Positions 6,647-28,451 of a stretch of 64,000 bases of DNA are shown here, one piece after another. Numbering within the stretch: the first letter of the stretch is position 1; each line of letters begins with the position of its first letter. The stretch is from IMG/VR virus record IMGVR_UViG_3300035188_001352, positions 1 through 64,000 of that record; one strand, 5' to 3'. Source of the DNA: an uncultured virus (IMG/VR IMGVR_UViG_3300035188_001352) (Duplodnaviria; Heunggongvirae; Uroviricota; Caudoviricetes). The notes beneath the pieces were generated by a model that was not told the origin of the DNA, searched no databases, and saw nothing but the letters and a program-made list of their open reading frames with translations. Position numbers and translations under genes: made by a program.

Positions 6647-7348
6647 TTATAATTCAGCATATTCATCTAAATCCTTTTCAATTAGTTCTCGTTGACATGC
6701 AATAAAGTCTCTATTACCATTTAAATGTTTATTTAGAATACTAAGAGCTTCTTTACATGATTCACTTTCGTCATTTACATCCCCCGTAAATGCATATACA
6801 TCTGTTAAAGTTGGAATCTTTAAAAATGATAAAATAGGTCCAACATAATTAGGATTTATTCTTATTGTTTCTGCATCCAAAATATGTTTATGAATATTTG
6901 AAAAAGAAGCATTTACAAATGCCTCTAGTTGTATTTCTCCATTAGGACAATATTTTGGAAAATTCTCAAAAGATGTAATTTTACGATACTTAAAAAGATG
7001 ATATGTTATAAAAACATCCCTATAATCTGATTTACATACTAATTTTTCAGGAAAGTTTTTGAATGATTTTAATTTTTCTAAACGCTCCAAAATCATATAT
7101 TTTGCATTTCGGATTTTGAATGGGAATTCACCATTAGCATCTAACATTTCATCATAAATTATAAGAGTTCCTAACTGACAATCAACTATCCCAGATGCAG
7201 ATATTTTGAAACCGTGCAAAGAGTTTTTCTTTGGGTCATTCGGTATAAGTTCTTGACTTGCCCAATCATTTAATAGGTCTCGAATACGTTGAACGTATTC
7301 GCTATTTGAAGCCGTGTCTTCTTGTAAGTATTGTTTAAAGCTCTGCAT
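6647..7348 (-). CDS. Array family member 1 (start MQSFKQYLQE)
   Basis: Ends FIACQRELIEKDLDEYAEL; start placed at 14-bp overlap ATG. Confidence 0.9.
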   Translation of the reverse strand: MQSFKQYLQEDTASNSEYVQRIRDLLNDWASQELIPNDPKKNSLHGFKISASGIVDCQLGTLIIYDEMLDANGEFPFKIRNAKYMILERLEKLKSFKNFPEKLVCKSDYRDVFITYHLFKYRKITSFENFPKYCPNGEIQLEAFVNASFSNIHKHILDAETIRINPNYVGPILSFLKIPTLTDVYAFTGDVNDESESCKEALSILNKHLNGNRDFIACQRELIEKDLDEYAEL

Positions 7349-8009
7349 ATTCATCTAAATCCTTTTCAATTAGTTCTCGTTGACAAGCTACAACATTTCT
7401 ATCACCATCTAAATGTGTTCTGACAATTCGAATGGCCTCATTTAATTTATCGTATTTTGCTAATCTAATACTATTAGAAGAAAACCAAACTTGAGTTGGA
7501 TGAGGTATTTGTAATAATCCTAATAACCCTCCATTAAAATACTCCATTTGATAAATGTGAATCGCATCACATTTTACTAGCTTTTTGATATTTGTAAAAA
7601 CTGTATCAACTTGAACATTGATAGACAATAAATGACAAACTACTTGAAATGGAAGTAATCTATTCAATCCTATATTACAATTAGCCGAAAACTTATGATG
7701 ATTAATGACATGCGCAAAGTTCATTTTATACTCAGAGCAAACTGCTTCCATAATCTTACCATGCAAATCAAACTGAGCTTTTTCAGATTTCAACCAATTA
7801 CTATCAGGGTCTATAATAACTACAACAAAACCTTCAGTGCTTACATCTTGAAGTGAAAACTTAAAGCCTTTCAACACTGGTGAGACTATACCACGAACTT
7901 TTGCTGAAGTTATGTCTGTTATAGGATTTCCTGGAAAGTAATAACAACATTCAAGATAAACTGAATTCTGAGTTTCACCTTCTTGCAAGTATTGTTTAAA
8001 ATTCTGCAT
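7335..8009 (-). CDS. Array family member 2 (MQNFKQYLQE)
   Basis: Ends VVACQRELIEKDLDEYAEL; body similar to 15233..15904. Confidence 0.9.
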   Translation of the reverse strand: MQNFKQYLQEGETQNSVYLECCYYFPGNPITDITSAKVRGIVSPVLKGFKFSLQDVSTEGFVVVIIDPDSNWLKSEKAQFDLHGKIMEAVCSEYKMNFAHVINHHKFSANCNIGLNRLLPFQVVCHLLSINVQVDTVFTNIKKLVKCDAIHIYQMEYFNGGLLGLLQIPHPTQVWFSSNSIRLAKYDKLNEAIRIVRTHLDGDRNVVACQRELIEKDLDEYAEL

Positions 8010-8664
8010 ATTCGTCTAAATCACGTTCAATTAGTTCTCGTTGACAAGCTACAACATTTTGACGTTCAGGATTCAAATGCTTATTGATAACATACATCCA
8101 ATGCAATTCATGATAATCTGATGTTGATAAGTTGATTGCTTTACCTTTCTTAGCTAACCTAATAATGCCTAATGCCTTTCCGGTAACGTTTTCACAATTA
8201 CGAATATATAAGTTTCTAAAAGAAGATATAATTTTATCAATTCCGGATAATGAAGATTTATTTTCTACATTTACATAAACAGTATCATATGAAATTGGAA
8301 TTGAAAGTTTAGGAACCTCATGTGAAAAGAATAGATTAACATGGTGGTCTTCATGATTTTCTCGATAGTTAGAAGAATCACCTGCAAATTCATTCAATAC
8401 GTCTAAAACATTTTCACGATAATTATCAAAAGCATCAACATTTTTATCTTCAATCAATAATTTAATAGAAAATGAAATAGTACTAACTAATATAATACTA
8501 TCAGTTCCAGTCTTTTCATTGATAAGTTTTTTGAACTGTTGCAAATTTGCTTTCATCTTCTTACATAAGTCAGTCAATCCGCTAAATTCTAATGTAAGCT
8601 CTATCATATGATTTTGTTTTAACTTTGGAATAGCTTCGTGTTCAAATAGTTCTTTTACTTTCAT
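7996..8664 (-). CDS. Array family member 3 (MKVKELFE)
   Basis: Ends VVACQRELIERDLDEYAEF; body similar to 11237..11872. Confidence 0.9.
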   Translation of the reverse strand: MKVKELFEHEAIPKLKQNHMIELTLEFSGLTDLCKKMKANLQQFKKLINEKTGTDSIILVSTISFSIKLLIEDKNVDAFDNYRENVLDVLNEFAGDSSNYRENHEDHHVNLFFSHEVPKLSIPISYDTVYVNVENKSSLSGIDKIISSFRNLYIRNCENVTGKALGIIRLAKKGKAINLSTSDYHELHWMYVINKHLNPERQNVVACQRELIERDLDEYAEF

Positions 8665-9602
8665 TAAAACTCCGCGTACTCGTCTAGGTCGTTTTCAATT
8701 AGATCACGTTGGCACGCAATCCTGTTGCGCCCTGCAAATATATGTTTAGTTAGAATTTTACCTAAGATAAGATCAACTTCTTGTGGTGGTTTTGTTTGTC
8801 GAACACCTTGTTCTAATCCTTTAATTTTCAAAATAGAAAGAACACCACTTTTAATAGTTGGGTCAAATTGTAACATGATGCCTATTCTTTTTACTAACTT
8901 ATCTAAATTGTCAAAAGAAGTAATTTTTGCATTACGATAAATTTGTAGATTACCATCAATATCAGAAGCAATATGTTCTAATGATGATAAGTTTTTATTA
9001 TCCCATATAGCTAAATTTGTTAATTTAGATGGACAACCTTCTAAAGATATTAGATTTTCATTGTCACTTATCATCAAATGTTCAATTGTTGGCGGACAAC
9101 CTTTTAGGGAACGAATTGAAGATTTAAGAACATTGAGATAAATTGTATCTTTTGGGAATTCAATTTGAGTTAAGTCAGGGCCCATTTCTCCAGATAATAT
9201 AATTGTTTTATTTTCTTCTTTCTTAGCTAATTTTTTTTCAGCTATGTCTTTCAGCTTTTTTAAACAGTTGATATAACGAACATATAGATTAGGAACGGGA
9301 ATAGGCGAATTCATCTTAGTGGCTCTATCAGCATGTGCTGCCTGAGCTCTTATCTGTCCATTAGAATAAATCGAATAATCCATAGTTCCATTTTTCAACT
9401 TGAATGTTAAAGTTCCGTTTTTTAGTTTTATAGCAGAACTGATATCAAATGTTTTTGAAAGTATTTCTTTATATTCGTTTGATTGTTTGACTTTATTTAG
9501 AGTATCAGCTAAATCAACCGGGTCAATAGGCGGCAAATCTTTAACAGCAGGTATCGAAACACCGGCTTCTTTTAGTAATGGAAATAGTTCATTTAGTTTC
9601 AT
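8664..9602 (-). CDS. Array family member 4, LRR-containing (MKLNELFPLLKE)
   Basis: Repeats SLKGCP / SLEGCP / SLEHIA / SFDNL; ends IACQRDLIENDLDEYAEF. Confidence 0.9.
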   Translation of the reverse strand: MKLNELFPLLKEAGVSIPAVKDLPPIDPVDLADTLNKVKQSNEYKEILSKTFDISSAIKLKNGTLTFKLKNGTMDYSIYSNGQIRAQAAHADRATKMNSPIPVPNLYVRYINCLKKLKDIAEKKLAKKEENKTIILSGEMGPDLTQIEFPKDTIYLNVLKSSIRSLKGCPPTIEHLMISDNENLISLEGCPSKLTNLAIWDNKNLSSLEHIASDIDGNLQIYRNAKITSFDNLDKLVKRIGIMLQFDPTIKSGVLSILKIKGLEQGVRQTKPPQEVDLILGKILTKHIFAGRNRIACQRDLIENDLDEYAEF

Positions 9603-10327
9603 TAAAACTCCGCGTAATCGTCTAGATTATTTTCAATTAGTTCTCGTTGGCAGGCAATAGCATTTTTTTCGTCTGTTTGTAAATGGTTATAGACTATTCC
9701 AATTGCTTGGCGAAGTTCATTAGAGTATTTAGCTCTTTCAGTTGCTGGATATGAAATAGTTCTCAATCCTGGTATCTTTAGCAAGCCTAATATAGAATTA
9801 GTCAAAGTATGCGGAACGACAATTTCACCATCACCTTGTCTATTAGGTCTTATTTCTTTGATGACTTTGTGAATGCCACTCAAAGAAGTAATACCAGTTC
9901 CACGAAGTATATATGAAGAAGCTCTTTCAGGAAAATAATCAAGTGATGTGATTTCTGGATTGTTGCTAATGCTAAAACGACCACCCACGATTTTAGGACA
10001 TCCTTTCAAAGAACCTAAACTACAATTTGCTATAAAGAAGTTCCTTTCTATTTGTCCAAACTGACATGGCAAATAACGAAGATGAGTTGAACCATTAATA
10101 CGTGGCAAACATTCTTCATCACCAGATAATAACACAGCCGTAGCATTTACAATACCATAATCATACTTTGCATTTTCAAAGTTGCCAGGGTCTAAATCTT
10201 CAATGTTATACTTCTTTAGAACTCGATGACCATTTCTAGTAATCCAGTCGATAATATCTTCTTCCGGCCAAAAGTCGAAATCGTTGTTAGCCTGTTCTTT
10301 TAATAAGTATTGTCTAAAACTCTGCAT
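9602..10327 (-). CDS. Array family member 5, LRR-like (MQSFRQYLLKE)
   Basis: SLKGCP / SLDYFP / SLSGI repeats; ends IACQRELIENNLDDYAEF; start at 14-bp overlap. Confidence 0.9.
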   Translation of the reverse strand: MQSFRQYLLKEQANNDFDFWPEEDIIDWITRNGHRVLKKYNIEDLDPGNFENAKYDYGIVNATAVLLSGDEECLPRINGSTHLRYLPCQFGQIERNFFIANCSLGSLKGCPKIVGGRFSISNNPEITSLDYFPERASSYILRGTGITSLSGIHKVIKEIRPNRQGDGEIVVPHTLTNSILGLLKIPGLRTISYPATERAKYSNELRQAIGIVYNHLQTDEKNAIACQRELIENNLDDYAEF

Positions 10328-11240
10328 AATCATCCAAGTCGTTTTCAATTAGTTCACGTTGACATTTGATAGCACTTCGTTCACTAGAGAATAAATGCTT
10401 AGAAACAATTTGAGCAACTAAACCAAATTCTCCATCTTCTGTTTTTCTACCATTTATAGTAAATGCAATTGAAGTACAATCTTTTACTTTGAAAAATGCT
10501 AAGACCCCAGTTTTGACTGGCGGTAAAGTAAATCCTTGACACCTCGGAATATGCTTATGAACGTCAGAGAATGAAGTGATTGGATTACCATACGCTTGAA
10601 TAAACTGAGCATGCTTTGGAAATCCTTCAAAAGATGTTAGCTTATTATTAGCAGCATTAAACAATCTACATTGTTCAGGACCACCAACTAAAGGCGAAGT
10701 CAGTTCATTGTTGTTACAATAGAAATCCCCACCTACTGAGAAATCCCCCGCCGCATTAAGTTCAGGTGCTCCTTCTAAGGTTGTAAGATTATTGTAAGAA
10801 CAATTGAAGTTTGAAATCTTATTTGGATAAATTCTGCCTTTTAGCGTAGTAAGACTAAGATTACGCACATCATCTTTAGCATTCTTTAGACGTTTTGCAA
10901 ACCAATTCACAAAATGGGTATGTATTGTATCTAAACAGTTCAGATACATTTGTAATGAACCGTCTGGACCCGCACCATAACCCGCTTTACCCCAAATAGA
11001 GGCGTAAGAATTTTTGACTTTGATATCACCTGCATAATTGACAAAGTATTCTCGTGGTTCTTTTAGATAGGTATCTTTAGTCACTATTTGCAAAGAACCA
11101 TTCTTTCTTTGTATTTTCGTGGAGTTCAAGTCAAAGTACTTCGAGAAGTCCTTAAACTCTGGAGTTTGTTCTAATTGGTCAATGACCGCTGAATAGTCTG
11201 CACCTTTAGATGCTTCATTTAACAATTCTGATATTTTCAT
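10314..11240 (-). CDS. Array family member 6, LRR-containing (MKISELLNE)
   Basis: CSYNNLTTLEGAP / CNNNELTS / NNKLTSFEGFP repeats; ends IKCQRELIENDLDDYAEF. Confidence 0.9.
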   Translation of the reverse strand: MKISELLNEASKGADYSAVIDQLEQTPEFKDFSKYFDLNSTKIQRKNGSLQIVTKDTYLKEPREYFVNYAGDIKVKNSYASIWGKAGYGAGPDGSLQMYLNCLDTIHTHFVNWFAKRLKNAKDDVRNLSLTTLKGRIYPNKISNFNCSYNNLTTLEGAPELNAAGDFSVGGDFYCNNNELTSPLVGGPEQCRLFNAANNKLTSFEGFPKHAQFIQAYGNPITSFSDVHKHIPRCQGFTLPPVKTGVLAFFKVKDCTSIAFTINGRKTEDGEFGLVAQIVSKHLFSSERSAIKCQRELIENDLDDYAEF

Positions 11241-11872
11241 AGTTCTGCGTACTCGTCTAAATCCTTTTCAATTAGTTTTCGTTGACATGCAATGACATCA
11301 CCCGAGTTTAAATATTTTAAAACAATGTTAGCCCATTCAGGATTTGGAGTATTGATTTTTATTACTCCATGTTTTGCTAACTTTATCAAACCCAAAACAC
11401 CACCTGTAATATTCTCAGAATTATTGATTTCTAAATAACTAAAATCTTTTATTATTTTATGAATACCAGATAATGAAGTTTTATTAAGGTTCTGAATAAA
11501 GATATTCGGAAACTCAATTGGTATTGGTAATGAAGGAACCTGTTTGTCAAATGTTAAATGAACTATATGCGACCCTGAATCTTCACGAATTTCAGTGATA
11601 TCAAAAAACGCTTTAAGAACAGCATTGACATCATCTATGTAATTCGCAAAATCATTCACCTGATGTTCTGGAACTTCAAGGCTAATATCAAATGTACCTT
11701 TACCAACTTGAATAATTGAACTCAATCCGGTTTTTTTGTCAATAGCATCAGTTATCTTTTTAGGATTTTCATTGAGTTTTGTTAAAGTAGTAGTTAGAGC
11801 ATTATACGACAGCCATAAGTCTATAAAATAATCTTTTCTAACTGAGGTTTCAAATAGTTCTTTTATTTTCAT
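11237..11872 (-). CDS. Array family member 7 (MKIKELFE)
   Basis: Ends IACQRKLIEKDLDEYAEL. Confidence 0.9.
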   Translation of the reverse strand: MKIKELFETSVRKDYFIDLWLSYNALTTTLTKLNENPKKITDAIDKKTGLSSIIQVGKGTFDISLEVPEHQVNDFANYIDDVNAVLKAFFDITEIREDSGSHIVHLTFDKQVPSLPIPIEFPNIFIQNLNKTSLSGIHKIIKDFSYLEINNSENITGGVLGLIKLAKHGVIKINTPNPEWANIVLKYLNSGDVIACQRKLIEKDLDEYAEL

Positions 11873-12528
11873 TAAAATTCCGCGTATTCGTCTAAGTCTT
11901 GTTCAATCATTTCACGTTGACATGCAACTATATCTTGATTTTCTGATTTTCTATAACTAGTAATAATTTTAACCCATTCAACAGTTTTAAACTTATTACC
12001 CCAATCTGCATTATTTAGAATGAGTTTGCCTTTGATTTTCAATAACCCTACAACACTATCGCTAATCATATTAGCATATTCAATTCTAAATAATTCATCT
12101 GCTTTAATAAGTTTATCAACACCTGCTAATGAAAGAGCTGTATTACTATTTGAGTTCAAATAGATAACCGGCCATTCAATTGGGCTATTTGGCATATTGT
12201 CAATAAAGACAATAGGAAATGATGAACCTTCGTTATAAGGGCTTTTATCGATTTTGTTAAAGCTTTCGACTACTTCGCGAACTCTTTCTAATTGATGTTC
12301 AATATTAGTTTTGTTGAATGGAAGTTTTCCGTTCAAAGTTATTCGTACTTGGTTACTTGATGATGGTTTATCGACAAGTTTAACTTTTACGCCAGTAAGA
12401 TTAGCTTTAATCAAAGCATCTCGAATAGCAATTACTTTTGGTGCAAAATGTGTTTCAAACGATAACTTTATTTCAAAAGTATCGGTTCTATTACTTGTTG
12501 CTTCATTTAATAATTCTGATATTTTCAT
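11872..12528 (-). CDS. Array family member 8 (MKISELLNE)
   Basis: Ends VACQREMIEQDLDEYAEF. Confidence 0.9.
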   Translation of the reverse strand: MKISELLNEATSNRTDTFEIKLSFETHFAPKVIAIRDALIKANLTGVKVKLVDKPSSSNQVRITLNGKLPFNKTNIEHQLERVREVVESFNKIDKSPYNEGSSFPIVFIDNMPNSPIEWPVIYLNSNSNTALSLAGVDKLIKADELFRIEYANMISDSVVGLLKIKGKLILNNADWGNKFKTVEWVKIITSYRKSENQDIVACQREMIEQDLDEYAEF

Positions 12529-13166
12529 AATTCTGCGTACTCGTCCAGGTCGTTTTCAATTAGTTTTCGTTGACATGCAATCCAATCATTGGCTGTTTGA
12601 TAACTATTTATGATAGATATAGCTTTTAATAAAGTATTATAACCTTCTTTCCATCTATCAGTTGAAGCAGTAGAAAGTAAAGGAATATTTTTCATCTTCA
12701 ATACACCTAATAAGTTTGATTGAACTGATACAGGAACATAAATCTTACTGCAACTCTGAATATGTTTATGAATATCTTTGAATGAAGTGATAGGATTATC
12801 AATCAAATCTAAAGAACCACTTATATTATAAGGAGCACCTTCAAGTGAAGTAATATTATTTTTATAACAATTTACAGCACCATGAACCGAGTTTGGAAAG
12901 TTTTTGAATGAAACTATTTGTCTATCTTCAATATCAAAATCACCTAATACTACGTCAAGTTTATATTTTAGTTCATATCCATTTTCAACTTTATCAGCGA
13001 AAGCTCCAAATGCCGTATCAGATTGCGATAAGTCTAATTTAGAATTAGCATATAATATGCCCATTTTATTTAGATTGATAGTACCTTGAGTAAGCATTCT
13101 CAATTGCTCTGCTACTTTATATGGTATTTGTTCTTCTTCCTGTTCAAACAATTCTTTTATTTTCAT
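12525..13166 (-). CDS. Array family member 9, LRR-like (MKIKELFE)
   Basis: SFKNFP / SLEGAP / SFKDI repeats; ends IACQRKLIENDLDEYAEL. Confidence 0.9.
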   Translation of the reverse strand: MKIKELFEQEEEQIPYKVAEQLRMLTQGTINLNKMGILYANSKLDLSQSDTAFGAFADKVENGYELKYKLDVVLGDFDIEDRQIVSFKNFPNSVHGAVNCYKNNITSLEGAPYNISGSLDLIDNPITSFKDIHKHIQSCSKIYVPVSVQSNLLGVLKMKNIPLLSTASTDRWKEGYNTLLKAISIINSYQTANDWIACQRKLIENDLDEYAEL

Positions 13167-13831
13167 TAAAACTCCGCATACTCGTCTAAGTCATTTTCAA
13201 TTAGTTTTCGTTGGCACGCAATGGTGTTGCCATTAGGTAAGAATTCATTGAGAATATCAATTGCTCTTTCGAAATCGTCAATACTTTCACTTGATATCCA
13301 AACAGTTTTAAGGTTTTTGATTTTCAAAAATCCTAATATCGGACTTGGCTTATTCCCAGAAATATAAATCTTATCAGCTTCTAAGATATGGTTATGAACA
13401 TTAGCGAATGATAAATTTTGAGCTTCCCATAAATTCAATACTCCTTTGGAATACTTTGGAATACTTTCTAAAGAAGTAAGCTTAGGGAAATTTACTCCCT
13501 CTAATTTTAGAGCATCAATCTTTGAGCTTTTAGGAGTTTCAATATACTCTGGAAAGTTTTTGAATGAAGAAAGTGCAGACGTATAAACGTGAATACATTT
13601 AGCTCGGGTAATCTTGAATGGAAGAGTTCCTTCTGGCGTTAGCATTCTTTCCGTAATTTGAAATTTTGGCATATTGCATGAAACTGTTCCATCTTTAGCG
13701 ACTACAAATTTGTCATAGTAATCATGCGGAAAAGTTTGCCAACTTCGCCATTCATCAATAATAGCAAGTACTTCATCCTTAGACATTTGTTGATTACTAG
13801 ATGTTTGTTCAAATAGTTCTTGTATTTTCAT
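13166..13831 (-). CDS. Array family member 10 (MKIQELFE)
   Basis: Ends IACQRKLIENDLDEYAEF; close paralog of 15904..16581. Confidence 0.9.
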   Translation of the reverse strand: MKIQELFEQTSSNQQMSKDEVLAIIDEWRSWQTFPHDYYDKFVVAKDGTVSCNMPKFQITERMLTPEGTLPFKITRAKCIHVYTSALSSFKNFPEYIETPKSSKIDALKLEGVNFPKLTSLESIPKYSKGVLNLWEAQNLSFANVHNHILEADKIYISGNKPSPILGFLKIKNLKTVWISSESIDDFERAIDILNEFLPNGNTIACQRKLIENDLDEYAEF

Positions 13832-14523
13832 TAAAACTCCGCGTACTCGTCTAAATCTTTTTCAATCAATTCGCGTTGACATGCAATGGCATCTCGTTTA
13901 GAACTTGCTAAATGTTTATTTAGTATCTGTTGCCACTTATCACCATGGTCTGTAACTGAACTCAATCCATTTATCTTTAGAAATCCAAGAATAGGACCTT
14001 TATACGGATATGGAAATTTAACACCTTCAACATAATCGATATGTTTATGAACATTTGCAAAAGATAGTTTCGGAAAATGAGAAAAATCTGCGGAACCATT
14101 AATATGTCGAGGCACACCTTCTAATGAATGAATATTAGGCCCTTTCATTGTGCTATTAACTCCGAATATGTTCAGCATTGTGCCATTACTATTATTAAGA
14201 ACTTTATCTGGAAAGTTTTTAAACGTTGTCATTGCATTAACACCATAAACATCAAGTGAAATACATGATATAAACTTGAATGGAAGCTCTCCGTTCTCAA
14301 ACATCCATTCATAAAGTTTTAGATTTTCGCTCAAATGCTCTACACCATAACCTCCACCTTTATATGGAACTATTTTATATTTTCCGAATGGTGGATACCA
14401 TGAAGAATATGTTGCAGCTTTTTCAGAAGCAATTTTGGTTCGCCATTTATGTATCTTAGCCATGATAGCAAATTCTTCCGGATGCTTCTTTACTGCTTCA
14501 TTTAACAACTCTCCAATTTTCAT
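13831..14523 (-). CDS. Array family member 11 (MKIGELLNE)
   Basis: Ends IACQRELIEKDLDEYAEF. Confidence 0.9.
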   Translation of the reverse strand: MKIGELLNEAVKKHPEEFAIMAKIHKWRTKIASEKAATYSSWYPPFGKYKIVPYKGGGYGVEHLSENLKLYEWMFENGELPFKFISCISLDVYGVNAMTTFKNFPDKVLNNSNGTMLNIFGVNSTMKGPNIHSLEGVPRHINGSADFSHFPKLSFANVHKHIDYVEGVKFPYPYKGPILGFLKINGLSSVTDHGDKWQQILNKHLASSKRDAIACQRELIEKDLDEYAEF

Positions 14524-15236
14524 AGTTCTGCGTACTCGTCTAAATCCTTTTCAATTAGTTCTCGTTGGCACTCAATGATGTTTCTTTTACCTTTTAAATG
14601 TTCAGTAACAATAGCACAAGCTTTTTCTTTATTAGTTGTAGCATTTTGTAATGTTGGACCATTAATTTTTTGCAAGTTTGGTATTTTCAGAAAACTTAGT
14701 AATGGGCCAACATAATCACGGTCAATAGCAACAACAGAACAACTTTTGATATACTTATCAACATTAGAAAAATTCACTTTTTCTAGCATGCTCATATCAA
14801 TACCACCCTGAACTTCTGGAGTAATTCCTTCTAACGAAGTGATATGATCATATCGTTCATCATTTGAATAAACCCCTCCAAAGTTAAGTGACCAATCAAA
14901 TCTTCCAAATCCTACTTTATTTCTATAATCTCTAAGTATTTCATTAGGAAAGTTTTTGAATGACTTAATTTTTGGAGTTCCAACTGATAACTTATAACAA
15001 CTATGGATTTTGATTGGTAATTCTCCATTTTCATCTAACATGTAGTTTCGAATTACTAATGCTCGTCCTTTATGAATAAGATGATTATCTGGGGTTAGCT
15101 CGAAGTGACCAAAAGCAGATTCTGAAAATTGCGGATTAGCTTTTATTTCTTCTCGCCATTGTTTAATAATGGCTCTAACTCGTTTTGTTTCTTCTGAAAC
15201 TTTAGGTGCTTCTTGAAGTAGTTCTCGTATTTTCAT
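14520..15236 (-). CDS. Array family member 12 (MKIRELLQE)
   Basis: Ends IECQRELIEKDLDEYAEL. Confidence 0.9.
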   Translation of the reverse strand: MKIRELLQEAPKVSEETKRVRAIIKQWREEIKANPQFSESAFGHFELTPDNHLIHKGRALVIRNYMLDENGELPIKIHSCYKLSVGTPKIKSFKNFPNEILRDYRNKVGFGRFDWSLNFGGVYSNDERYDHITSLEGITPEVQGGIDMSMLEKVNFSNVDKYIKSCSVVAIDRDYVGPLLSFLKIPNLQKINGPTLQNATTNKEKACAIVTEHLKGKRNIIECQRELIEKDLDEYAEL

Positions 15237-18955: not shown

Positions 18956-18990
18956 AAAAAAGGGGAGAATACTTTATTGGTATTCTCCCC
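18956..18990 (-). terminator. Rho-independent terminator after tail tube gene
   Basis: GGGGAGAATAC / GTATTCTCCCC 11-bp stem followed by T6 on minus strand. Confidence 0.8.
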
Positions 18991-19009
18991 CCTTCTATGA
19001 GTATGAAAC

Positions 19010-20255: not shown

Positions 20256-21001
20256 AACTCTGCGTATTCATCCAAGTCATTTTCAATTAGTTCGCGTTGG
20301 CACGCAATGGCGTTTCGAGATTTAGCATACTTGCTTAGTATTTTGCATACTAAATCAAATTCTTTAGCTTTAGAACCATCTGGGTCTGACTTCCATTGGT
20401 CAAAACTGGTTCTTTGTTCTATTGAAACCCAATGTCCTTTGATTTTGAATATTGATAAGACAGGTTTTTTATAGGCAGCATCAAATCCAAGATAGATAGT
20501 ATGAATTACTTCAACGTGATATTGAACCTCTTTGAGAGGAACATCACCAATGTCATATAGAACTAAGTCAAGACATTTTGTTTTTGCATCTCCAAATGTT
20601 TTGAGATTAGGACATTGAATGCTGAGCTTCCAATGTACTTGAGTATAAAGATAATCTAAGGTGGTTAAGTTCTTTGAGTCAATAACCATTTCATGTCTTA
20701 TTGTATCAGGACAACCTTGAAGAGTAGTAAGACCATTTTCAACACCGGAAATAGTTTCAAAGTAACTCATAATTGAAAACTTGACAGGTAGTACGTATTG
20801 CTTACCATTATCTAACTTTAGACACGAAATAAAATATCCATGAGGCGCAGAAGTTGAATAAGTACCATTCTTATTCCTCTTTACACTTCCTCTAAAGTAA
20901 TCACTTACATTGACATTAACATATGCTGGATTAGACGGGTCTTGCCATGGAGCAAGGTTTTTGGCAGATGCTTCTGCTAGATATGTTTTAAAACTCTGCA
21001 T
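20252..21001 (-). CDS. Array family member 15 (MQSFKTYLAE)
   Basis: Ends IACQRELIENDLDEYAEF. Confidence 0.9.
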   Translation of the reverse strand: MQSFKTYLAEASAKNLAPWQDPSNPAYVNVNVSDYFRGSVKRNKNGTYSTSAPHGYFISCLKLDNGKQYVLPVKFSIMSYFETISGVENGLTTLQGCPDTIRHEMVIDSKNLTTLDYLYTQVHWKLSIQCPNLKTFGDAKTKCLDLVLYDIGDVPLKEVQYHVEVIHTIYLGFDAAYKKPVLSIFKIKGHWVSIEQRTSFDQWKSDPDGSKAKEFDLVCKILSKYAKSRNAIACQRELIENDLDEYAEF

Positions 21002-21647
21002 ATTCGTCTAAATCCTTTTCGATAAGTTCACGTTGAAAACCAATGACATCCTGTGTAGGACGATGCTTTATCAGCATTTCGTCAATCTTATGATGTAAAT
21101 CTCCAGACGATCTTGAATAGAGATACATATCAACGCTCATAGGTATTTTGCATAATGACAAGATATGACCTTTCAGCTTTTGAATATCGTTAATGAATAG
21201 TTCTTGAACTTCTGGTCCTATGAGCTTGTCTAACCCGGTAAGACCAATGGAATTTTCTTGACAATTGATAGTTACTCTTTCAGTAATAACTTTGAATGAT
21301 GGAACACCATCGAAAACTAATTCTGATTGACCATGAGCAATAGGATCTTCATCTTTATTATTAAAATCATTAACTGTTTCTTCAACTGTTTGAATAATGT
21401 CATCATGTATATCCGGTAGTTCATGAATATAAGATGCCACAATCTTTGGTATTTTAGTCAAAATAGCTTCTTTATCAATATGAACTTCAGCTTGAGGATA
21501 GACAAACTTGATGTTTTTGACTATCCTTTGTCTAAGATTTTCTGATGGAAGATTTTCAAGAGAAAGGTCTACAACATATGTTCCACTACTAACTCTGCCT
21601 TGTGTCGTCATCGGTAATTCATTCTCAAATAGTTCTTTTATTTTCAT
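20988..21647 (-). CDS. Array family member 16 (MKIKELFE)
   Basis: Ends IGFQRELIEKDLDEYAEF; start reassigned to TAATG overlap at 21647. Confidence 0.9.
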   Translation of the reverse strand: MKIKELFENELPMTTQGRVSSGTYVVDLSLENLPSENLRQRIVKNIKFVYPQAEVHIDKEAILTKIPKIVASYIHELPDIHDDIIQTVEETVNDFNNKDEDPIAHGQSELVFDGVPSFKVITERVTINCQENSIGLTGLDKLIGPEVQELFINDIQKLKGHILSLCKIPMSVDMYLYSRSSGDLHHKIDEMLIKHRPTQDVIGFQRELIEKDLDEYAEF

Positions 21648-22384
21648 TAAAACTCCGCATATTCGTCTAGGTCTTTTTCGATAAGTTCTCGCTGACATTG
21701 TATAATACTAGAACTATTATACTTATTTAGTATTTTTAACACTTCTACTACTTCAGTTAGAGACGTTCCATTAATTGTCATAATTGAACCCCATGTCAAT
21801 TTAGCATTACATTTCAACAATGATAACAGCGGTTTTTGTTTGATTAGGTGTAGAGCGGTGTTATAGAAACGAATTTGTGGAACTGCAAAATGTTTGTGTA
21901 AATCTCTAAGCGGTGCTTTCCCAATACTTCCAATTTTTAGTTCTTGTGCAATCGAAACTTTTCCACAATCAAAACTTTTCAAGTTAGGAGTATAGAGATA
22001 TAACGAATCTTTGATAACTGGAGTACAATGTTCTAATGTTTCTAATGACGGAACACTTATATTCAATTGGTCGCATGCATCAGGAATTCCCCAAAGTGAT
22101 TTGAAATTTGAACCATCTGCAACATTTATTTCAAACTTCTTAGCAGTTCTGTACTTTACCATGAGTGCAGTTTCACCATGACCGTATCCGCCAATGTCGC
22201 CATATACCCCATTAGGCGAATAGTCCGACTTAGTGACAGATACAGTTCCGTCTTTATTCACTTTCCATCCAGACATATTAGCATAATTTTTCATATAGTA
22301 CTGAACTTTCTCAGGGTCAGTAATATGCCAAGGGGCAAAATTGGTTGCTAACTTTTCAGCAAGATAAGATTTAAAATTCTGCAT
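21647..22384 (-). CDS. Array family member 17 (MQNFKSYLAE)
   Basis: Ends IQCQRELIEKDLDEYAEF. Confidence 0.9.
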   Translation of the reverse strand: MQNFKSYLAEKLATNFAPWHITDPEKVQYYMKNYANMSGWKVNKDGTVSVTKSDYSPNGVYGDIGGYGHGETALMVKYRTAKKFEINVADGSNFKSLWGIPDACDQLNISVPSLETLEHCTPVIKDSLYLYTPNLKSFDCGKVSIAQELKIGSIGKAPLRDLHKHFAVPQIRFYNTALHLIKQKPLLSLLKCNAKLTWGSIMTINGTSLTEVVEVLKILNKYNSSSIIQCQRELIEKDLDEYAEF

Positions 22385-23015
22385 ATTCGTCTAAGTCACG
22401 TTCAATTAGTTCTCGTTGAAAGCCAATAGTATCTTTACTCCCATTATAGTATTTATGTAAAATGTCATTAACAATTTTAAGGTCGCTAAGTAATTCATCT
22501 GGACCATTTATCATGATGCTATCAAAACCTTTTACTTTTAGAAGCGATAGTATTCCAATTGATTTAGCCGGTGCTTCAAAACGAATGTCCAATTGAAATG
22601 CACTTGAACCTTCTATTAGTTTTTCGATACCTTTAACAGACTCTTGGTTAGTATAGATAGTAGTCAAATGATTTTGAATGACCATCTTGAAAGCAGGTGG
22701 CCAATGACATTCAATATGACTGTAAGCGTCAACAGGTTCAAAGTGGTCAGTAACTATGTCATGTATATCACCTAAGAAATCAACAGTTTCAAAAAGATGT
22801 TGCGGAACATCGTGTATTTTGACAATTATTGAATCAAAAATAGAAGTGAACTCTATTGTATTAGAAAGGTTGTATTCTTCCTTGATAAATTTTGTAATTA
22901 GGAATACTAGAGTTTTACGTTTGCCGACAGAAATAGGACCAGCAAAGTCAATTTGTACATTGACAATTGGTAAGTGTCCAGCACTTTCTAATAAGTATTC
23001 TTTAAAACTCTGCAT
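22371..23015 (-). CDS. Array family member 18 (MQSFKEYLLE)
   Basis: Ends IGFQRELIERDLDEYAEF. Confidence 0.9.
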   Translation of the reverse strand: MQSFKEYLLESAGHLPIVNVQIDFAGPISVGKRKTLVFLITKFIKEEYNLSNTIEFTSIFDSIIVKIHDVPQHLFETVDFLGDIHDIVTDHFEPVDAYSHIECHWPPAFKMVIQNHLTTIYTNQESVKGIEKLIEGSSAFQLDIRFEAPAKSIGILSLLKVKGFDSIMINGPDELLSDLKIVNDILHKYYNGSKDTIGFQRELIERDLDEYAEF

Positions 23016-23796
23016 ATTCGTCCAAGTCGTTTTCTATTAGTTTACGTTGGCATCCAATAATATCAGGGTTGTTTGACGCTAAGTATGTATTGACTATTCT
23101 AGTTGCTTCAACTAATTCTTCGTTTACTTTAGTTTTATCAGAAAAGTAAAGTTGAATACCAAACATATTTCGTGTAGGCTTTTTAATTTTGAATATACTA
23201 AGTAATCCTTTTCCAACTAAAGTTTTTGCTGCGGCATTAGACAATGTTATGTTATTTACTATTTTGAAATGTTGTCCGATAGTTCTAAACAATTCATAGT
23301 CAAATTCGTAGTCAAGCACTAATCTATGACATGTAATTTGACATCCTTGACCCCATTCTTTCAACTTTAGACAATCGGTCAATATCAATGCCTCTTTAAC
23401 TTCACATGCAAATCCTTTGAATGAAGTAATTTGTGAAAGTTGTATGTTTAAACTCATTCCGACTTTATTAGGTCCATATTCTAATGTAGTCAATTTCCTA
23501 GTATTGAAATCTTTTATACTAACTCTACCTGGGCAATTGATATTGTTATACTTTACAAGTAGTCCAACTTCACCATTATCAACAGGTCCGATTTCACGAA
23601 TAGCGAAGAATTGCTCTCCTCGAACAGAAATACTTCCATTCTTTAGGAATACGAATGTAGTTGGCAAATATTTATTTCCATAATGTTCAAGATAAAACTC
23701 ATGAAGTACTTCCTTAGTTGCTTCTGGAGTTGTTGGGTGCCAAGGTGCCAAGTTCGTTTGCTTAGCTTCAGCAATAAAGTTCTTAAAATTCTGCAT
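23002..23796 (-). CDS. Array family member 19 (MQNFKNFIAE)
   Basis: Ends IGCQRKLIENDLDEYAEF; start at 14-bp overlap. Confidence 0.9.
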   Translation of the reverse strand: MQNFKNFIAEAKQTNLAPWHPTTPEATKEVLHEFYLEHYGNKYLPTTFVFLKNGSISVRGEQFFAIREIGPVDNGEVGLLVKYNNINCPGRVSIKDFNTRKLTTLEYGPNKVGMSLNIQLSQITSFKGFACEVKEALILTDCLKLKEWGQGCQITCHRLVLDYEFDYELFRTIGQHFKIVNNITLSNAAAKTLVGKGLLSIFKIKKPTRNMFGIQLYFSDKTKVNEELVEATRIVNTYLASNNPDIIGCQRKLIENDLDEYAEF

Positions 23797-24451
23797 ATTC
23801 GTCCAGGTCGTTTTCAATTAGTTCGCGTTGGGCAGCAATAGTGTCATGGGATTTTGCATATTTATTTAGTATTTCAATCCAGTGTTCATTTTTTCCTAAT
23901 ACTGAATGTAATGATTTTATCTTCAACATACTCAACACGTTAGTGACTTCTCCTACTATATGTTCAAACCTGAACACTTGAGTATCAGGGAAATGTTTGT
24001 CAAAGTTGCTAAGTGAGATACTTTTATTACGTTTCAAATCAAATACTATGACTGGATAATGTATGATAGTATTAGGATTGACCGGACCAAAGAACCATAC
24101 ACTTGGATTGACTTCATCTAGTGTCAATCCACCGCTTAGCTCACGATTAGAAAAATTCGCTGCTTCAGTCGCTATTTCTTCTAACTCATCTTGTACATAA
24201 TGTCGATTGCTTAGTTTAATTTCAACTTGTAGATTGTCATCTCTATTGAAACCCCAATCAATATCTTTCATACCTAAATGACTTTTAAGATCGTTGACAA
24301 ACTTTTCAACTTCATTATCAAAAGCATCGCGATTTCTATGATTTCCCATAGCTTCGCCAAAAGTTTCTTTGTTCTCTAGTTCTAAGACAAGCCATGGGAA
24401 AACAAATGGAGATTCATTTTCTTTTAGTAAGTATTGTTTAAAGCTCTGCAT
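23783..24451 (-). CDS. Array family member 20 (MQSFKQYLLKE)
   Basis: Ends IAAQRELIENDLDEYAEF. Confidence 0.9.
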   Translation of the reverse strand: MQSFKQYLLKENESPFVFPWLVLELENKETFGEAMGNHRNRDAFDNEVEKFVNDLKSHLGMKDIDWGFNRDDNLQVEIKLSNRHYVQDELEEIATEAANFSNRELSGGLTLDEVNPSVWFFGPVNPNTIIHYPVIVFDLKRNKSISLSNFDKHFPDTQVFRFEHIVGEVTNVLSMLKIKSLHSVLGKNEHWIEILNKYAKSHDTIAAQRELIENDLDEYAEF

Positions 24452-25100
24452 ACTCGTCTAAATCCTTTATAATAAGTTCGCGTTGGCATTCAATAATATC
24501 GTTATTATTTTCAAAATGTCTATGAACAATCTTAAACCATTCTGGTTCATTACTCATTGCCCATTCAAGATTTTGAAGATTTGTCATTTTCAACAATCCT
24601 AATACTTGCCCAGTGACTTTAACCGCGGCACTTACGTATAAAGCCAAATCTTTAGGATTTATAGCTTTATGAATATCATGTAAAGATACTTCAGCACCAC
24701 CATTTACTGTAAAGTTAAGAGCCACCTTAGGATGCTCAATTTTAAATGGGGGTATGATATTAAAGATACTTACAAACTGTTCTTTTAACTTCAAGGGTTT
24801 AGTAATAATATCTTTGTAATAGTTATTTAGCAGACCAAGCAGTTTTTTGTCAAAAGCACTAATACCTTCTGTACTACCTTCAGTTGCATTTGTGATTGGT
24901 ACTTTAAAAGCAAATTCTTTATCTCGGTATTCTATAGAAACTATTCTATTCTCAAATTGATTATGTAACAGATTGCCGATTGCATTTTCTATTGTTTCTG
25001 AAGTCGAGGGTAATGAAGAATTTGGTAGGTTACCGGGAACCTTACAATAAACATAATAGGTAATTCTTTGTGCGCCATTTGACATGTTATAACTCCGCAT
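24438..25100 (-). CDS. Array family member 21 (lacks typical N-terminal tag; start 25100 or 25085)
   Basis: Ends IECQRELIIKDLDEYAEL. Confidence 0.85.
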   Translation of the reverse strand: MRSYNMSNGAQRITYYVYCKVPGNLPNSSLPSTSETIENAIGNLLHNQFENRIVSIEYRDKEFAFKVPITNATEGSTEGISAFDKKLLGLLNNYYKDIITKPLKLKEQFVSIFNIIPPFKIEHPKVALNFTVNGGAEVSLHDIHKAINPKDLALYVSAAVKVTGQVLGLLKMTNLQNLEWAMSNEPEWFKIVHRHFENNNDIIECQRELIIKDLDEYAEL

Positions 25101-25791
25101 ACTCGTCTAAATCTTTTTCAATTAGTTCACGTTGACACGCGATGAAGTTTTTATCGGCGTCGAAATGTTTCATTACAATTTCATACCAAGGAGGTATCTT
25201 TTGAGAACGTGGCCAAATTGTAATATGCTTCAATTCTTTTAACTTTAATAATCCTAATACATTAGAATTTATTTTATTAATCGCATTATAGAAAATAATT
25301 TTTTTGCAATGAGGCATTTTCTTATGAATATCTTTTAGAGATATTGAAGGAGAATGATCTAAGTAAAATTCGATATATGGCCAATCAGTATAAACATTTG
25401 GACCAAGTTGTTCTCTAAAAGATATGTATGTATTGTCTTCATCACGGTGAAATATATCGGTTCCTAAAAGCTCATCAACTATTTCAGTGCATTTTTTACG
25501 TATTTCTCTAACATGATTAGCATGTAAGTTAGTCTCATCTAGTTCATATGTAATAAGCATTTCATCAGCTCCGAAAAAAGCTTCAACTTCATTATGTCCA
25601 AAGTAATCTTGAAGATGAGATGTTATCCATTTTTCGAAAGTAATATGTGGATTATCGTCACCATCACCGTCAGTAATCCATTGCTCAACCTCAGACGTAA
25701 AGATACCAGTGCTAATATCAATGTACGCGTTAGTGGGAAGTTCATGATTAATAATTTCTTCTTTCAATAAGAATTCTTTAAAACTCTGCAT
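25087..25791 (-). CDS. Array family member 22 (MQSFKEFLLKE)
   Basis: Ends IACQRELIEKDLDEYAEL. Confidence 0.9.
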   Translation of the reverse strand: MQSFKEFLLKEEIINHELPTNAYIDISTGIFTSEVEQWITDGDGDDNPHITFEKWITSHLQDYFGHNEVEAFFGADEMLITYELDETNLHANHVREIRKKCTEIVDELLGTDIFHRDEDNTYISFREQLGPNVYTDWPYIEFYLDHSPSISLKDIHKKMPHCKKIIFYNAINKINSNVLGLLKLKELKHITIWPRSQKIPPWYEIVMKHFDADKNFIACQRELIEKDLDEYAEL

Positions 25792-26455
25792 ATTCGTCTA
25801 AATCCTTTTCGATAAGTTCACGTTGACAAGCTACAATATCTTTTGACTCTGACCTTAAGTATTTGCTAATAATTACTTGAACATCTCGGTGTTCGCTTGA
25901 ACATTGGCCAAAAAACAAAGCTTGAAGTTTTGGAATCTTTAATGCCCATAAGACACCACCTTTCCATTGATTAGAAATTGTTAAAGTGCCATCTATGTAT
26001 TCAAAATGTTTGTGAGCATTAGACCAATCAAGATTATGACACAAGCCTAATCCAAGGTTTCCATCAATTCGTTTTGAAATGCCATCTAACTTTGTTAGAA
26101 GTGGATGCGCACAGGTAGTCACGATAGCAGTTCTTCCATACATCTTATCGCCGGTGAATGATACATCTGGTGGAAATCCTTCAAATGATGATAATCTATT
26201 GGCACCCAATTCAATCTGACCACACTTTATCATTTTGAAAGTTAGCTTACCGGCATCAGGTCCATCTTTAGGAATAAGAGTATTCTTTAAGTTCCAACGT
26301 CCATCAATTGATACCATACTATTAACAACGCTAAATTTCCCAAAGCTGACTGGCATCGGATGTGATGCATACTTACCTTTACGAATCGCATTTATTTCGA
26401 GTCGTACAGCTTTATCTTCGGCAGTTTCTTCAGTTAGTAGTTCAGAGATTTTCAT
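25778..26455 (-). CDS. Array family member 23 (MKISELLTE)
   Basis: Ends VACQRELIEKDLDEYAEF. Confidence 0.9.
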   Translation of the reverse strand: MKISELLTEETAEDKAVRLEINAIRKGKYASHPMPVSFGKFSVVNSMVSIDGRWNLKNTLIPKDGPDAGKLTFKMIKCGQIELGANRLSSFEGFPPDVSFTGDKMYGRTAIVTTCAHPLLTKLDGISKRIDGNLGLGLCHNLDWSNAHKHFEYIDGTLTISNQWKGGVLWALKIPKLQALFFGQCSSEHRDVQVIISKYLRSESKDIVACQRELIEKDLDEYAEF

Positions 26456-27120
26456 AGTTCTGCGTATTCGTCCAGGTCGTTTTCAATAAGTTCTCGTTGG
26501 CATTCAATAAAATTTCCAAGTGGTAAATATTTGTTGATAATATTACAAGCATTTCTTAAATTCACTTTAATTTTTACTTCATCTTGAGATTTACCAGAAT
26601 GGTGGTCAATAAATCCTACATGCTTCAAGTCTCTAATTTTTAGTAATGATAATAAGGGCCCTTCATATAAAGCACTAGTTATTAACCATCCATCAAGTCT
26701 TTTGACATACTTATTGAAATTTGTAAAATCAAAGTTTCTAATTCTTGATGTATCAAGTCTATTACTAATATCTGATGGAAATCCATCAAGAGATTGTATT
26801 TGGTTACCTGTAGAAAATTCAATACCACCTTCGCCAACTATTTCAGGAAAGTTCTTGAACGTCTTAGGAACATTCCATATTACTAATCGAAGAGCTTCTG
26901 CAATTGGAAATAGTAATTCATCATTGTCATCAAACATGCAATGCTCAATAATTAAAGGTTTCTTCAAATAGATTTTTCCATTCTTAACTGCATGTCGTGG
27001 AAATTTATTCGGAAACCTACATCTGCCAAGTTCTCCACTCTTATACTTTCCAATCATTTCACGGATTTGTTTATCATCCGGATTAGAAGCTTCAGATAAG
27101 TATTGCTTAAAGCTCTGCAT
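26452..27120 (-). CDS. Array family member 24 (MQSFKQYLSE)
   Basis: Ends IECQRELIENDLDEYAEL; start at 14-bp overlap. Confidence 0.9.
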   Translation of the reverse strand: MQSFKQYLSEASNPDDKQIREMIGKYKSGELGRCRFPNKFPRHAVKNGKIYLKKPLIIEHCMFDDNDELLFPIAEALRLVIWNVPKTFKNFPEIVGEGGIEFSTGNQIQSLDGFPSDISNRLDTSRIRNFDFTNFNKYVKRLDGWLITSALYEGPLLSLLKIRDLKHVGFIDHHSGKSQDEVKIKVNLRNACNIINKYLPLGNFIECQRELIENDLDEYAEL

Positions 27121-27793
27121 AATCGTCCAAGTCAAGTTCAATTAGTTTTCGTTGGCAAGCTATAAAGTCTTTTCCTGTATCGAAATATTCCTTTACAATG
27201 TTAAACCATTGAACTTTAGCTGAAGCATATAATGTTATAGCATTCTTTATCTTTAGTAATCCTAATACATTTTGTGTTATATTAGAAGAGTCACCCATAG
27301 AAATCTGTTTAGCAGATAATATGACTTTATGTATATCTTGTAAGGATTTGACACTTTCTTCAATGATAACGTGATTGACTTCAACTGTAGTCGTTTTATC
27401 AAAGTTATCTTCTAAGATAACTACTGGCATTTCAGAAGATACTGGTTCAAAGTCATTCTTATAAATTTCATACTTATCTGCTAACTTGATAAACTTTGTT
27501 GCTATAGTATCAAGTTGCGGTTTAGTATAATGAGTATGGGGTTCAAGAACTAAATGAAACGTTACTCTATCAACTCCAAAATGATAGACTTCTTTTACTT
27601 TAGGAAGATTTGCTTTTTCACAGAGTTCAGATAATTCACGAATAATTATATTGTTTCGCTGAAAAAGCTGTTCTCTATTATACTTTGGAGAAATGTAATC
27701 ATCTCCACGTACTTTTATTTGAAGAAGCAATGGGCGAATTGGTTCTACCCAATGATCATTGCCTTCTGCTAAGTATTCTTTAAAACTCCGCAT
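27107..27793 (-). CDS. Array family member 25 (MRSFKEYLAE)
   Basis: Ends IACQRKLIELDLDDYAEL. Confidence 0.9.
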   Translation of the reverse strand: MRSFKEYLAEGNDHWVEPIRPLLLQIKVRGDDYISPKYNREQLFQRNNIIIRELSELCEKANLPKVKEVYHFGVDRVTFHLVLEPHTHYTKPQLDTIATKFIKLADKYEIYKNDFEPVSSEMPVVILEDNFDKTTTVEVNHVIIEESVKSLQDIHKVILSAKQISMGDSSNITQNVLGLLKIKNAITLYASAKVQWFNIVKEYFDTGKDFIACQRKLIELDLDDYAEL

Positions 27794-28451
27794 ATTCGTC
27801 TAAGTCTTTTTCAATGAGTTCTCGTTGGCAAGCAATAGCATTTCTATTGCCTTGCAAATAAGGATTGACAATTGAATACCATCGTGGGCTATTACTTCCA
27901 AAAGGACCTGCGCCAATAATATTGACTGGCATTTTTAGTTTGAGCAAACTAAGTATTCCCCCTTTTATCATATTTGCTTTATAAAGTCTGAACTCATCAC
28001 ACTTTAGAATAACTTTATCTAAGTTAGAAATCGATTGACCTTCTTCACACCAATATGAAATGTTACCATCATTTATACTTAGCTTAAAATTTGGAAATCC
28101 AAAACAAGATAACTCAGCTGTAGAAAATTTTACTTGTAATTCAGGTGAAATCTTAGTCGTAAAAAACTCATTCACAGTTGAACTAATAGTATCACGTAAC
28201 TTTTGAATAGTTTCTGCTTGACACTGGATTTGTTTTGTTATCTTAAACTTCAAATCAATTCCATAAGTAGTACTGAGATAACTTGAAATATCATAACCTT
28301 TCTTTTTTGCTACTTTTATTATCAAATTTTTAAGCTCAGATTCTAAAGAATATGGAGAATATTCAATTTTGACTTTAGTTTCAACAAACATCCCAAGTTG
28401 AATATTTGAATCAGTTTCTACTTCTTGTAAGTATTCTTTAAAACTCTGCAT
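27780..28451 (-). CDS. Array family member 26 (MQSFKEYLQE)
   Basis: Ends IACQRELIEKDLDEYAEF; start at 14-bp overlap. Confidence 0.9.
   Translation of the reverse strand: MQSFKEYLQEVETDSNIQLGMFVETKVKIEYSPYSLESELKNLIIKVAKKKGYDISSYLSTTYGIDLKFKITKQIQCQAETIQKLRDTISSTVNEFFTTKISPELQVKFSTAELSCFGFPNFKLSINDGNISYWCEEGQSISNLDKVILKCDEFRLYKANMIKGGILSLLKLKMPVNIIGAGPFGSNSPRWYSIVNPYLQGNRNAIACQRELIEKDLDEYAEF

Follow-up and report, generated by a model that had tools for sequence, protein, structure and literature searches.

The window analysed here, the first 64,000 nucleotides (nt) of the 118,937-bp virus record IMGVR_UViG_3300035188_001352 of IMG/VR (G000; an uncultured member of the Caudoviricetes, estimated 35% complete), carries on its minus strand 27 paralogous genes of ~210-310 codons. 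Fourteen of them lie at 6647-16581 (array 1) and 13 at 20252-29076 (array 2), and the two arrays are separated by TerS-like, head-completion-like and two tail-tube-like genes (Table 1). The array genes were called from open reading frames (ORFs) and their translations, and all match the family profile. Counting five members elsewhere, the record holds at least 32 paralogs, and four further members were found on contigs that look like additional pieces of this phage or of a close one. The first gene of array 1 is itself entered through an overlap, its ATG at 16581 sharing bases with the stop codon of the TerS-like gene as TAATG. Upstream of array 2, a small ORF (29077-29265, minus strand, ~56 codons, ending GGT GTC TAA) overlaps by 8 nt the GTG start of the first array gene, which is preceded by GGAGGA; even this first member is thus overlapped by its neighbour.

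An earlier reading of these letters without database searches (the sequence-only reading) had described 25 member-to-member junctions of three kinds. We aligned all 27 array members at their stop codons and obtained exactly the same counts: 13 overlaps of 14 nt, seven TAATG overlaps of 1 nt and five ATGA overlaps of 4 nt, so that stop and start overlap on the same strand at 25 of 25 junctions. In every class the closing codons of a gene hold the start codon of its successor, and in the 14-nt class they hold the successor's first four to five codons as well; the full N-terminal leader M-[QR]-[SN]-F-K is found at 12 of the 13 14-nt junctions. The junction at 25087-25100 is degenerate (last sense codon TTA, leader MRSYNM), and there a second ATG, 2 nt past the stop, may be the true start. 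The two array-terminal genes (low coordinates 20252 and 6647) have no family gene downstream and no overlap, and a trio of members outside the window adds two more TAATG junctions. The type of N-terminal peptide does follow the type of junction, as had been claimed, but in part trivially, MQSF being what the YAEF-stop codons spell in the +1 frame; a core [FI]-K-E-[YL]-[LF]-x-E is common to both leader classes.

Table 1. Family members, junctions and neighbouring genes (window positions unless marked G000).
Feature	Position	Strand	Remark
Array 2, 13 genes in transcription order, first seven	28438-29076 (GTG start), 27780-28451, 27107-27793, 26452-27120, 25778-26455, 25087-25791, 24438-25100	minus	
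Array 2, remaining six	23783-24451, 23002-23796, 22371-23015, 21647-22384, 20988-21647, 20252-21001	minus	
Array 1, 14 genes in transcription order, first seven	15904-16581, 15233-15904, 14520-15236, 13831-14523, 13166-13831, 12525-13166, 11872-12528	minus	
Array 1, remaining seven	11237-11872, 10314-11240, 9602-10327, 8664-9602, 7996-8664, 7335-8009, 6647-7348	minus	
14-nt junctions (low coordinates)	28438, 27780, 27107, 25778, 25087, 24438, 23783, 23002, 22371, 20988, 10314, 7996, 7335	minus	TAT GCx GAx yTx TAA/TAG, with an ATG 14 nt ahead of the stop codon's end
14-nt example	28438..28451	minus	TAT GCA GAG TTT TAA, read +1 as ATG CAG AGT TTT AA(A)
TAATG junctions (1-nt overlap)	21647, 15904, 13831, 13166, 11872, 9602, 8664	minus	
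TAATG example	13831..13845	minus	TAC GCG GAG TTT TAA, GGAG 5 nt before ATG
ATGA junctions (4-nt overlap)	26452, 15233, 14520, 12525, 11237	minus	
ATGA example	11237..11240	minus	..GCA GAA CTA TGA
Solitary member	32064..32747	minus	ends ..DEYATF; family profile; no family gene downstream
Solitary member	39457..40299	minus	leader MKLQDLLTE, diverged end ..DESGWAE; family profile
Trio of members (third cluster)	G000 106075-107896		family profile; outside the window
Large terminase	5042..6601	minus	adjoins array 1 downstream, same strand; tblastn 44% identity to RsoM2USA, 40% to XacN1 terminase
TerS-like gene	16581-17054	minus	Pfam/PHROG matches; between arrays
TnsA/gp4-like head completion gene	17020-17595	minus	Pfam/PHROG matches; between arrays
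Tail-tube-like (gp19-like) genes	17600-18868 and 19010-19603	minus	Pfam/PHROG matches; between arrays
Non-family 394-residue protein starting MKIFELF	29266..30450	minus	upstream of array 2; no significant family (Pfam, PHROG)
gp21-family prohead protease	G000 108521-108946		PF03420, 84 bits; PHROG head maturation protease, 5.6e-54

The pattern exceeds chance, since the same junction types recur in other phages and leave signatures in codon usage. Searching a viral contig collection with two profiles gave 87 related loci; 34 near-identical to the record were removed, and G000 together with the remaining 53 yielded, once duplicates were taken out, 117 unique member-member junctions. One hundred of these fall into the three main classes (50 ATGA, 38 of 14 nt and 12 TAATG, with 17 other), and the 90 found outside G000 comprise 45 ATGA, 25 of 14 nt, three TAATG and 17 other. 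The 14-nt form occurs in seven of 24 sequence groups, and it persists with a YAKL instead of a YAEF C-terminus (TAT GCA AAA CTT TAA, read as ATG CAA AAC TTT AAx, MQNFK).

Codon choice at the gene ends varies with the junction class. The tyrosine at position -4 is TAT at every 14-nt junction (13/13 in this phage, 38/38 across phages), which is true by class definition, as is the choice of CTT/TTT versus CTA/TTA for the last residue. At the other junctions of G000 it is TAC in 10 of 12 cases, compared with a background of 19% in the same genes (P 2.9e-6), and in the other phages in 10 of 21, compared with 22.5% (P 0.0098), while the alanine at -3 is GCG at 7/7 TAATG junctions, compared with 9% (P 5e-8; these binomial tests treat kin paralogs as independent, and the P values are too small). 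The five ATGA junctions of this phage have TAC 5/5 and, for the last sense codon, CTA/TTA 5/5. The codon effect points the same way in separate phages, and TAC is favoured where an upstream out-of-frame ATG would be spurious. Because synonymous codons at gene ends depend on the start of the next gene, the dual coding is real, conserved and under selection on its second reading; the idea that a gene's closing codons are under constraint from the start that follows has held up.

Junction conservation could instead be a matter of inheritance by tandem duplication combined with protein selection on the YAEF frame, with incidental ATGs and a chance likeness of the leader to that of T4 proteins (described below). 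In favour of such an account, solitary and terminal genes retain the C-terminal residues with no gene to follow them, and paralogues are not independent samples. It fits poorly with synonymous sites that vary by junction class beyond any protein need (TAC 10/12 and 10/21, GCG 7/7), with downstream reading frames that are open just 2-25 codons ahead of the proposed ATG, with the presence of the same leader on first-in-array genes that have no upstream family gene, and with the fact that both strict-leader genes of the Ralstonia phage RsoM2USA encode virion proteins. It is already disfavoured, and we regard it as highly unlikely.

The 14-nt junction might also double as a programmed +1 frameshift site, at which a P-site tRNA on CTT/TTT before TAA-A would slip to TTT and some ribosomes would fuse neighbouring proteins, much as at the CUU-UGA site of prfB. 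The last sense codon is indeed CTT or TTT in 36 of the 38 junctions of this class, four bases T/C-T-T-T precede the stop and the next gene lies in the +1 frame. The same codons are needed, however, for the Phe-Lys of the leader, TAT (38/38) is required only by an ATG start, no stimulator resembling a Shine-Dalgarno (SD) sequence occurs at prfB-like spacing, and TAA is a strong stop; we find a frameshift barely credible.

Signals for translation differ between the classes. As proposed earlier, the Ala-Glu codons of the TAATG junctions supply the SD: GCG followed by GAG makes a GGAG at 5-nt spacing in six of seven. A well-placed SD was found at 0/13 of the 14-nt and 0/5 of the ATGA junctions, that is, 18 of 25 junctions are without one; by our reading of the upstream sequences, about nine of 14 non-family structural genes have one. 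The overlaps and the SD-less junctions most naturally suggest coupling by termination and re-initiation. Inside the arrays, neither sigma-70-like promoters (87 found, 89.9 expected) nor terminator-like sites (9 found, 8.0 expected) were enriched. Contigs from RNA libraries cover the arrays, with 30 of 30 bins in three runs of one sample (one study) and 17 of 30 in a fourth run, but such contigs may contain DNA and show neither transcription nor operon structure. For one contig joint in these libraries (15959>22989), the simplest explanation is a chimera formed in assembly across the repeated junctions. The contigs also often stop at family junctions (21007-21016, 23000-23021, 25797-25806, 26537-26568 and 28436-28465), as expected if near-identical junction DNA breaks short-read assembly, and metagenome assemblies may therefore contain such arrays in pieces or in collapsed form.

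At the protein level, a member consists of a leader of ~10 residues, a variable N-terminal domain and a constant C-terminal module (C module) of ~95 residues that ends in [DE]-[YFW]-A-[EK]-[LF]. An AlphaFold model of the member at 13831-14523, made from an 80-row alignment (predicted local distance difference test score, pLDDT, of 93), has a short N-terminal helix (residues 3-7, block pLDDT 72), a loop, a long helix and a short beta-strand solenoid, with two closing helices that take in the last residues (pLDDT 98). The model of the member at 7996-8664 (pLDDT 92) has a disordered leader (pLDDT 47) and a ferredoxin-like alpha/beta domain at residues 19-94 (a common fold, best Z 9.0), followed by the same C-terminal module. 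The module is modelled with a pLDDT of 96-98, and the leader is poorly packed in both cases (72 and 47). In a VIA-align structure search all 50 listed matches were leucine-rich-repeat (LRR) proteins, at Z 5.3-6.9, which is under the tool's own comfort level. Foldseek found nothing in the PDB at E <= 0.001 (best E-value 0.43), and Pfam LRR models stayed below the cut-off for all members searched; a search of predicted viral structures gave only four matches at E <= 0.001, whose lengths are those of the four RsoM2USA members. The models thus depict the constant module as LRR-like, with an end cap.

These models change the picture of the C-terminal end, which the sequence-only reading had taken for a tag within a portable unit of ~60 bp: it is the last helix of a folded, conserved module. 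Because this end is kept in solitary, array-terminal and RsoM2USA members without a family gene downstream, it is constrained as protein independently of the next gene, and first-in-array genes keep the leader though no family gene lies upstream; leader and C-terminal peptide are each constrained on their own account, and the overlap is a compaction that their codons allow. A portable junction unit is therefore not supported, nor was any foreign gene seen to have entered between two such units, variation being confined to the N-terminal domain inside family members. One could still imagine the ~60-bp junction as a universal docking cassette that would tag any foreign gene at both ends and couple it. 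The variable regions of the 32 members do form 17 BLAST clusters with at least two different predicted folds, and whole units are exchanged between related phages; every insert seen nonetheless bears the constant ~95-residue C module, which is a folded protein part and no tag, and a non-family gene between two junctions was found at none of the 117 examined. We consider such a cassette quite improbable.

The N-terminal peptide has fared differently, and does look like an address tag. The leader of the 14-nt class reads M-Q-[SN]-F-K-[QE]-[YF]-L-x-E (F4 in 37/38, Y/F7 in 37/38, L8 in 35/38, E10 in 23/38; where residue 10 is Lys, residue 11 is mostly Glu), and that of the other classes M-K-[ILFV]-x-E-[LF]-[LF]-x-E. 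In T4 (NC_000866) the leaders are MKTYQEFIAE for the internal proteins IPII and IPIII, MKTFKEF.. for IPI and MELITELFDE for Alt, the ..I-T-E-L-F-D-E of which is close to the second family class. The first 10 residues of T4 IPIII suffice for packaging, residues 4 and 7 of the T4 leader serve targeting and 8 and 10 processing, and the protease gp21 cleaves after L/I-x-E (PMC9026906). The family logo is conserved at exactly these positions (4, 7, 8 and 10): its ~10-residue leader has hydrophobic or aromatic residues at 4 and 7 and, as a sequence pattern, an L/I-x-E processing motif at its end. The strict leader is absent from all 493 internal Met residues of G000.

The surrounding head genes point the same way. 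Judged by its terminase, tail-tube, TnsA/gp4-like, portal, PF03420 protease and T4-type capsid genes, the record belongs to a jumbo myovirus of the T4 superfamily; portal, prohead protease and major capsid protein are encoded further along G000, beyond the window, and a gp21-family protease was also found in four of four relatives searched. The interval from the protease to the major capsid gene contains three members; their neighbours there are a coiled-coil scaffold-like protein and small non-family proteins whose leaders read ..KELFEIAGI.., and the capsid protein itself begins MELFEN. The presence of the protease, the members in the protease-capsid interval and this capsid N-terminus fit a head-targeting role, and the leader is probably a T4-type capsid-targeting propeptide.

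Further support comes from RsoM2USA, a cultured relative of 343.8 kb with four to five family members in a profile search. Ten proteins from its most abundant virion bands were identified with LC-MS/MS, among them ORF89 (28.57 kDa) and ORF132 (76.64 kDa) (PMC8504454). RsoM2USA_89 is a family member (profile E 1.4e-28, 253 residues, leader MKTFKQFLSE), and ORF132 is a 674-residue non-family protein that begins MKTFKQFLNTLME; their computed masses of 28.56 and 76.62 kDa served to check both identities. A strict DNA-level search for M-K-x-F-K-[QE]-F found two matches in the whole genome, at the starts of ORF89 and ORF132, and none in a reversed control, so that both strict-leader genes, of 486 ORFs, belong to this set of ten virion proteins. 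The virion protein ORF86 is without such a leader, and no homologue of ORF132 was found in G000, a 35% fragment.

Virion presence would also suit a leader that acts as an uncleaved address, docking interchangeable binders to a single site on the particle's exterior (tail, neck or capsid surface), the arrays then forming a host-recognition repertoire. The LRR-like bodies in the models would be apt binders, and the RsoM2USA data give virion presence without location. Ten residues are few for an anchor, however, the likeness to the two kinds of T4 capsid-targeting leader extends to the L/I-x-E processing positions, three members lie inside the protease-to-capsid gene module and the leader is unpacked in both models, all of which makes outside docking unlikely in our judgement.

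Other leader-like peptides were seen in passing. A 254-residue non-family protein at G000 98987-99751 (plus strand; L094:88-852) begins MKVRELFLTE, contains HELTH (an HExxH-like motif) without a Pfam match, and could be a leader-tagged metallopeptidase-like enzyme. In the protease-to-capsid interval (G000 105352-108379, minus strand), orf158 and the member at 107270-107896 have a common 28-residue N-terminus, MK[PS]EKSMKELFEIAGIKDID..LSLITE, while orf99 contains ..LFEIAGIKDID.. and orf125 ..MKIAGITNIN..; this looks like a second common leader type with LxE sites in the head module. The strict-leader pattern misses the MKIFELF of the protein upstream of array 2 (29266-30450).

Across related phages the family changes by whole genes. 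Many members have orthologues, 43-67% identical, in a related phage, where whole genes are absent, added or reordered: the orthologues of 15904, 14520, 13831, 9602, 12525 and 7996 are consecutive there, and the junction 21647>20988 is TAATG in G000 and ATGA in the related phage. Three complete relatives (342-360 kb) gave 10, 22 and 40 profile matches, the ~40 being those of a complete 360-kb relative. This gain, loss and reordering fits unit-wise recombination at common ends. In another sample, a 325-residue protein (P0005) joins the front of the member at 22371-23015 to the back of that at 21647-22384; assembly may have produced this join, or a deletion in nature may have fused the two adjacent genes.

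Beyond these phages, a search of 1.84 billion proteins with the family profile matched 4622 cluster representatives (E <= 0.001); ten clusters that we looked up all came from metagenome assemblies and bore no name but 'hypothetical protein'. The member at 13831-14523 had no tblastn match in 50,697 phage records, and a broader member matched only RsoM2USA and three uncultured megaphage records. Searches with 10-12 members returned no Pfam or PHROG family, only weak PHROGs of unknown function, and we found no account of the family in the literature on jumbo-phage LRR paralogs or on phage paralogs with a capsid-targeting sequence.

Altogether, we favour, with some reserve, reading the arrays as translationally coupled, recombination-prone runs of leader-tagged virion repeat proteins. 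At most downstream genes (the 18 of 25 without an SD), ribosomes finishing the upstream gene would re-initiate at the overlap, which would keep a whole run expressed as one unit. The near-identical gene ends would act as recombination sites, so that whole genes could be gained, lost and reordered with frame and coupling intact. The leader would serve as a capsid-targeting propeptide of the T4 type that takes the proteins into the prohead, where the gp21-type protease of the phage would cut it after L/F-x-E, and the virion would then carry the repeat proteins, probably as far as the next host cell's interior.

Several known systems come close to parts of this proposal. The four T4 proteins IPI, IPII, IPIII and Alt have the same kind of ~10-residue leader, with residues 4 and 7 and L/I-x-E at 8-10, on bodies that are otherwise unrelated or fast-diverging, in a genome that also encodes a gp21-family protease; T-even internal proteins are described as 'highly diverse ... 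with only a conserved CTS', the capsid-targeting sequence (PMC3012670), and the leader-bearing proteins of RsoM2USA are likewise in virions. Their mature parts, however, show no sequence similarity to the family, the LRR-like C module has no T4 counterpart, T4 has four copies compared with at least 32 in G000, and ipI, ipII, ipIII and alt are separate genes rather than long overlapping runs; for the G000 proteins, packaging and cleavage are predictions. The jumbo phages phiKZ, 201phi2-1 and SPN3US also have many head proteins, including paralogous head, inner-body and ejection proteins, in which a diverged gp21 homologue cleaves behind the Glu of a short motif, but the motifs are S/A-x-E, the proteins are unrelated, and overlapping-junction arrays are not described in the passages on these phages (PMC9026906). 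The coupled overlapping genes of bacteria and phages resemble the arrays in that 12 of 25 junctions have the classic ATGA or TAATG forms and 18 are without an SD; they differ from the 14-nt form, in which two frames of the same bases spell two conserved peptides, one C-terminal and one N-terminal, and which is present 13 times in a single phage and kept across phages. For the bodies, the predicted solenoid resembles the FNIP proteins of CroV and the injected bacterial LRR effectors SspH1, YopM and XopL (7zal Z 6.3, 9h6w Z 6.3, 4ow2 Z 5.7, 4fcg Z 5.8), and CroV FNIP proteins are also many-paralogue binder families in a large virus; this is a fold-level match (Z below 8), and only the phage family has the leader and the constant C-cap module.

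Several observations weigh against the proposal. Packaging, cleavage and coupling in the phage of G000 are all steps that we infer from its sequence. The RsoM2USA paper says that the bands 'most likely correspond' to the named ORFs, and its account of them does not state head or tail (PMC8504454). The family adjoins the protease only in G000; among the relatives, it is within ~4 kb of it in the complete relative G003 and far from it in the complete relatives G001 and G002 and in RsoM2USA. The strict leader is on one of 110 non-family ORFs of G000 and is thus nearly family-specific there, and XacN1, a close relative of RsoM2USA, was searched and has no family member. The T4 late-promoter motif, searched for as TATAAATA, is not enriched (8 found, 7.4 expected). 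To these come the limits given above for the RNA-library contigs, the LRR Z-scores and the binomial tests.

A bolder form would see a cassette system, in which the interchangeable dual-coded junctions would let recombination add, drop or swap whole genes that stay coupled and gain a T4-type head-targeting leader, and dozens of different LRR-type binders would be packed in the capsid and injected with the DNA to act against host defence proteins; this we put forward tentatively, as a possibility that may well prove wrong. Polymorphic internal proteins with a capsid-targeting sequence and overlapping coupled genes are both already known; what is new is the family, its scale and the two-frame junction.

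In the neighbourhood of the arrays, one match to the late-promoter motif lies just upstream of the terminase gene, and a repeat of 145-295 bp (88-92% identity) occurs just downstream of that gene (window 4903-5046), at G000 92630-92922 and at 13879-14050 of L012, a different contig that belongs to this phage or to a relative. Between the two tube-like genes lies a strong terminator-like hairpin (18954-18998, minus strand; a stem of 19 pairs followed by a T run), directly downstream of the tail-tube gene at 19010-19603. Two homing-endonuclease-like genes (HNH / PHROG 314, 3339; G000 104572-105303 and 100429-101976) are inserted within the head gene module and next to it.

If the leader is a true capsid-targeting signal, T4-type head loading extends to a large group of uncultured phages of ~340-360 kb and to one cultured phage, and such phages would devote at least 20 kb to a diversified set of repeat-protein binders that enter the host along with the genome. 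In nature's own design, the junctions cleanly combine a start signal with two conserved peptides in one DNA stretch, on which selection can be measured at the codon level, and they show how packing of this kind lets a gene family grow and be reshuffled with ease. Neither Pfam nor PHROG has a name for the family, and if this reading is true, many jumbo-phage genes now labelled 'hypothetical' would acquire a role open to testing.

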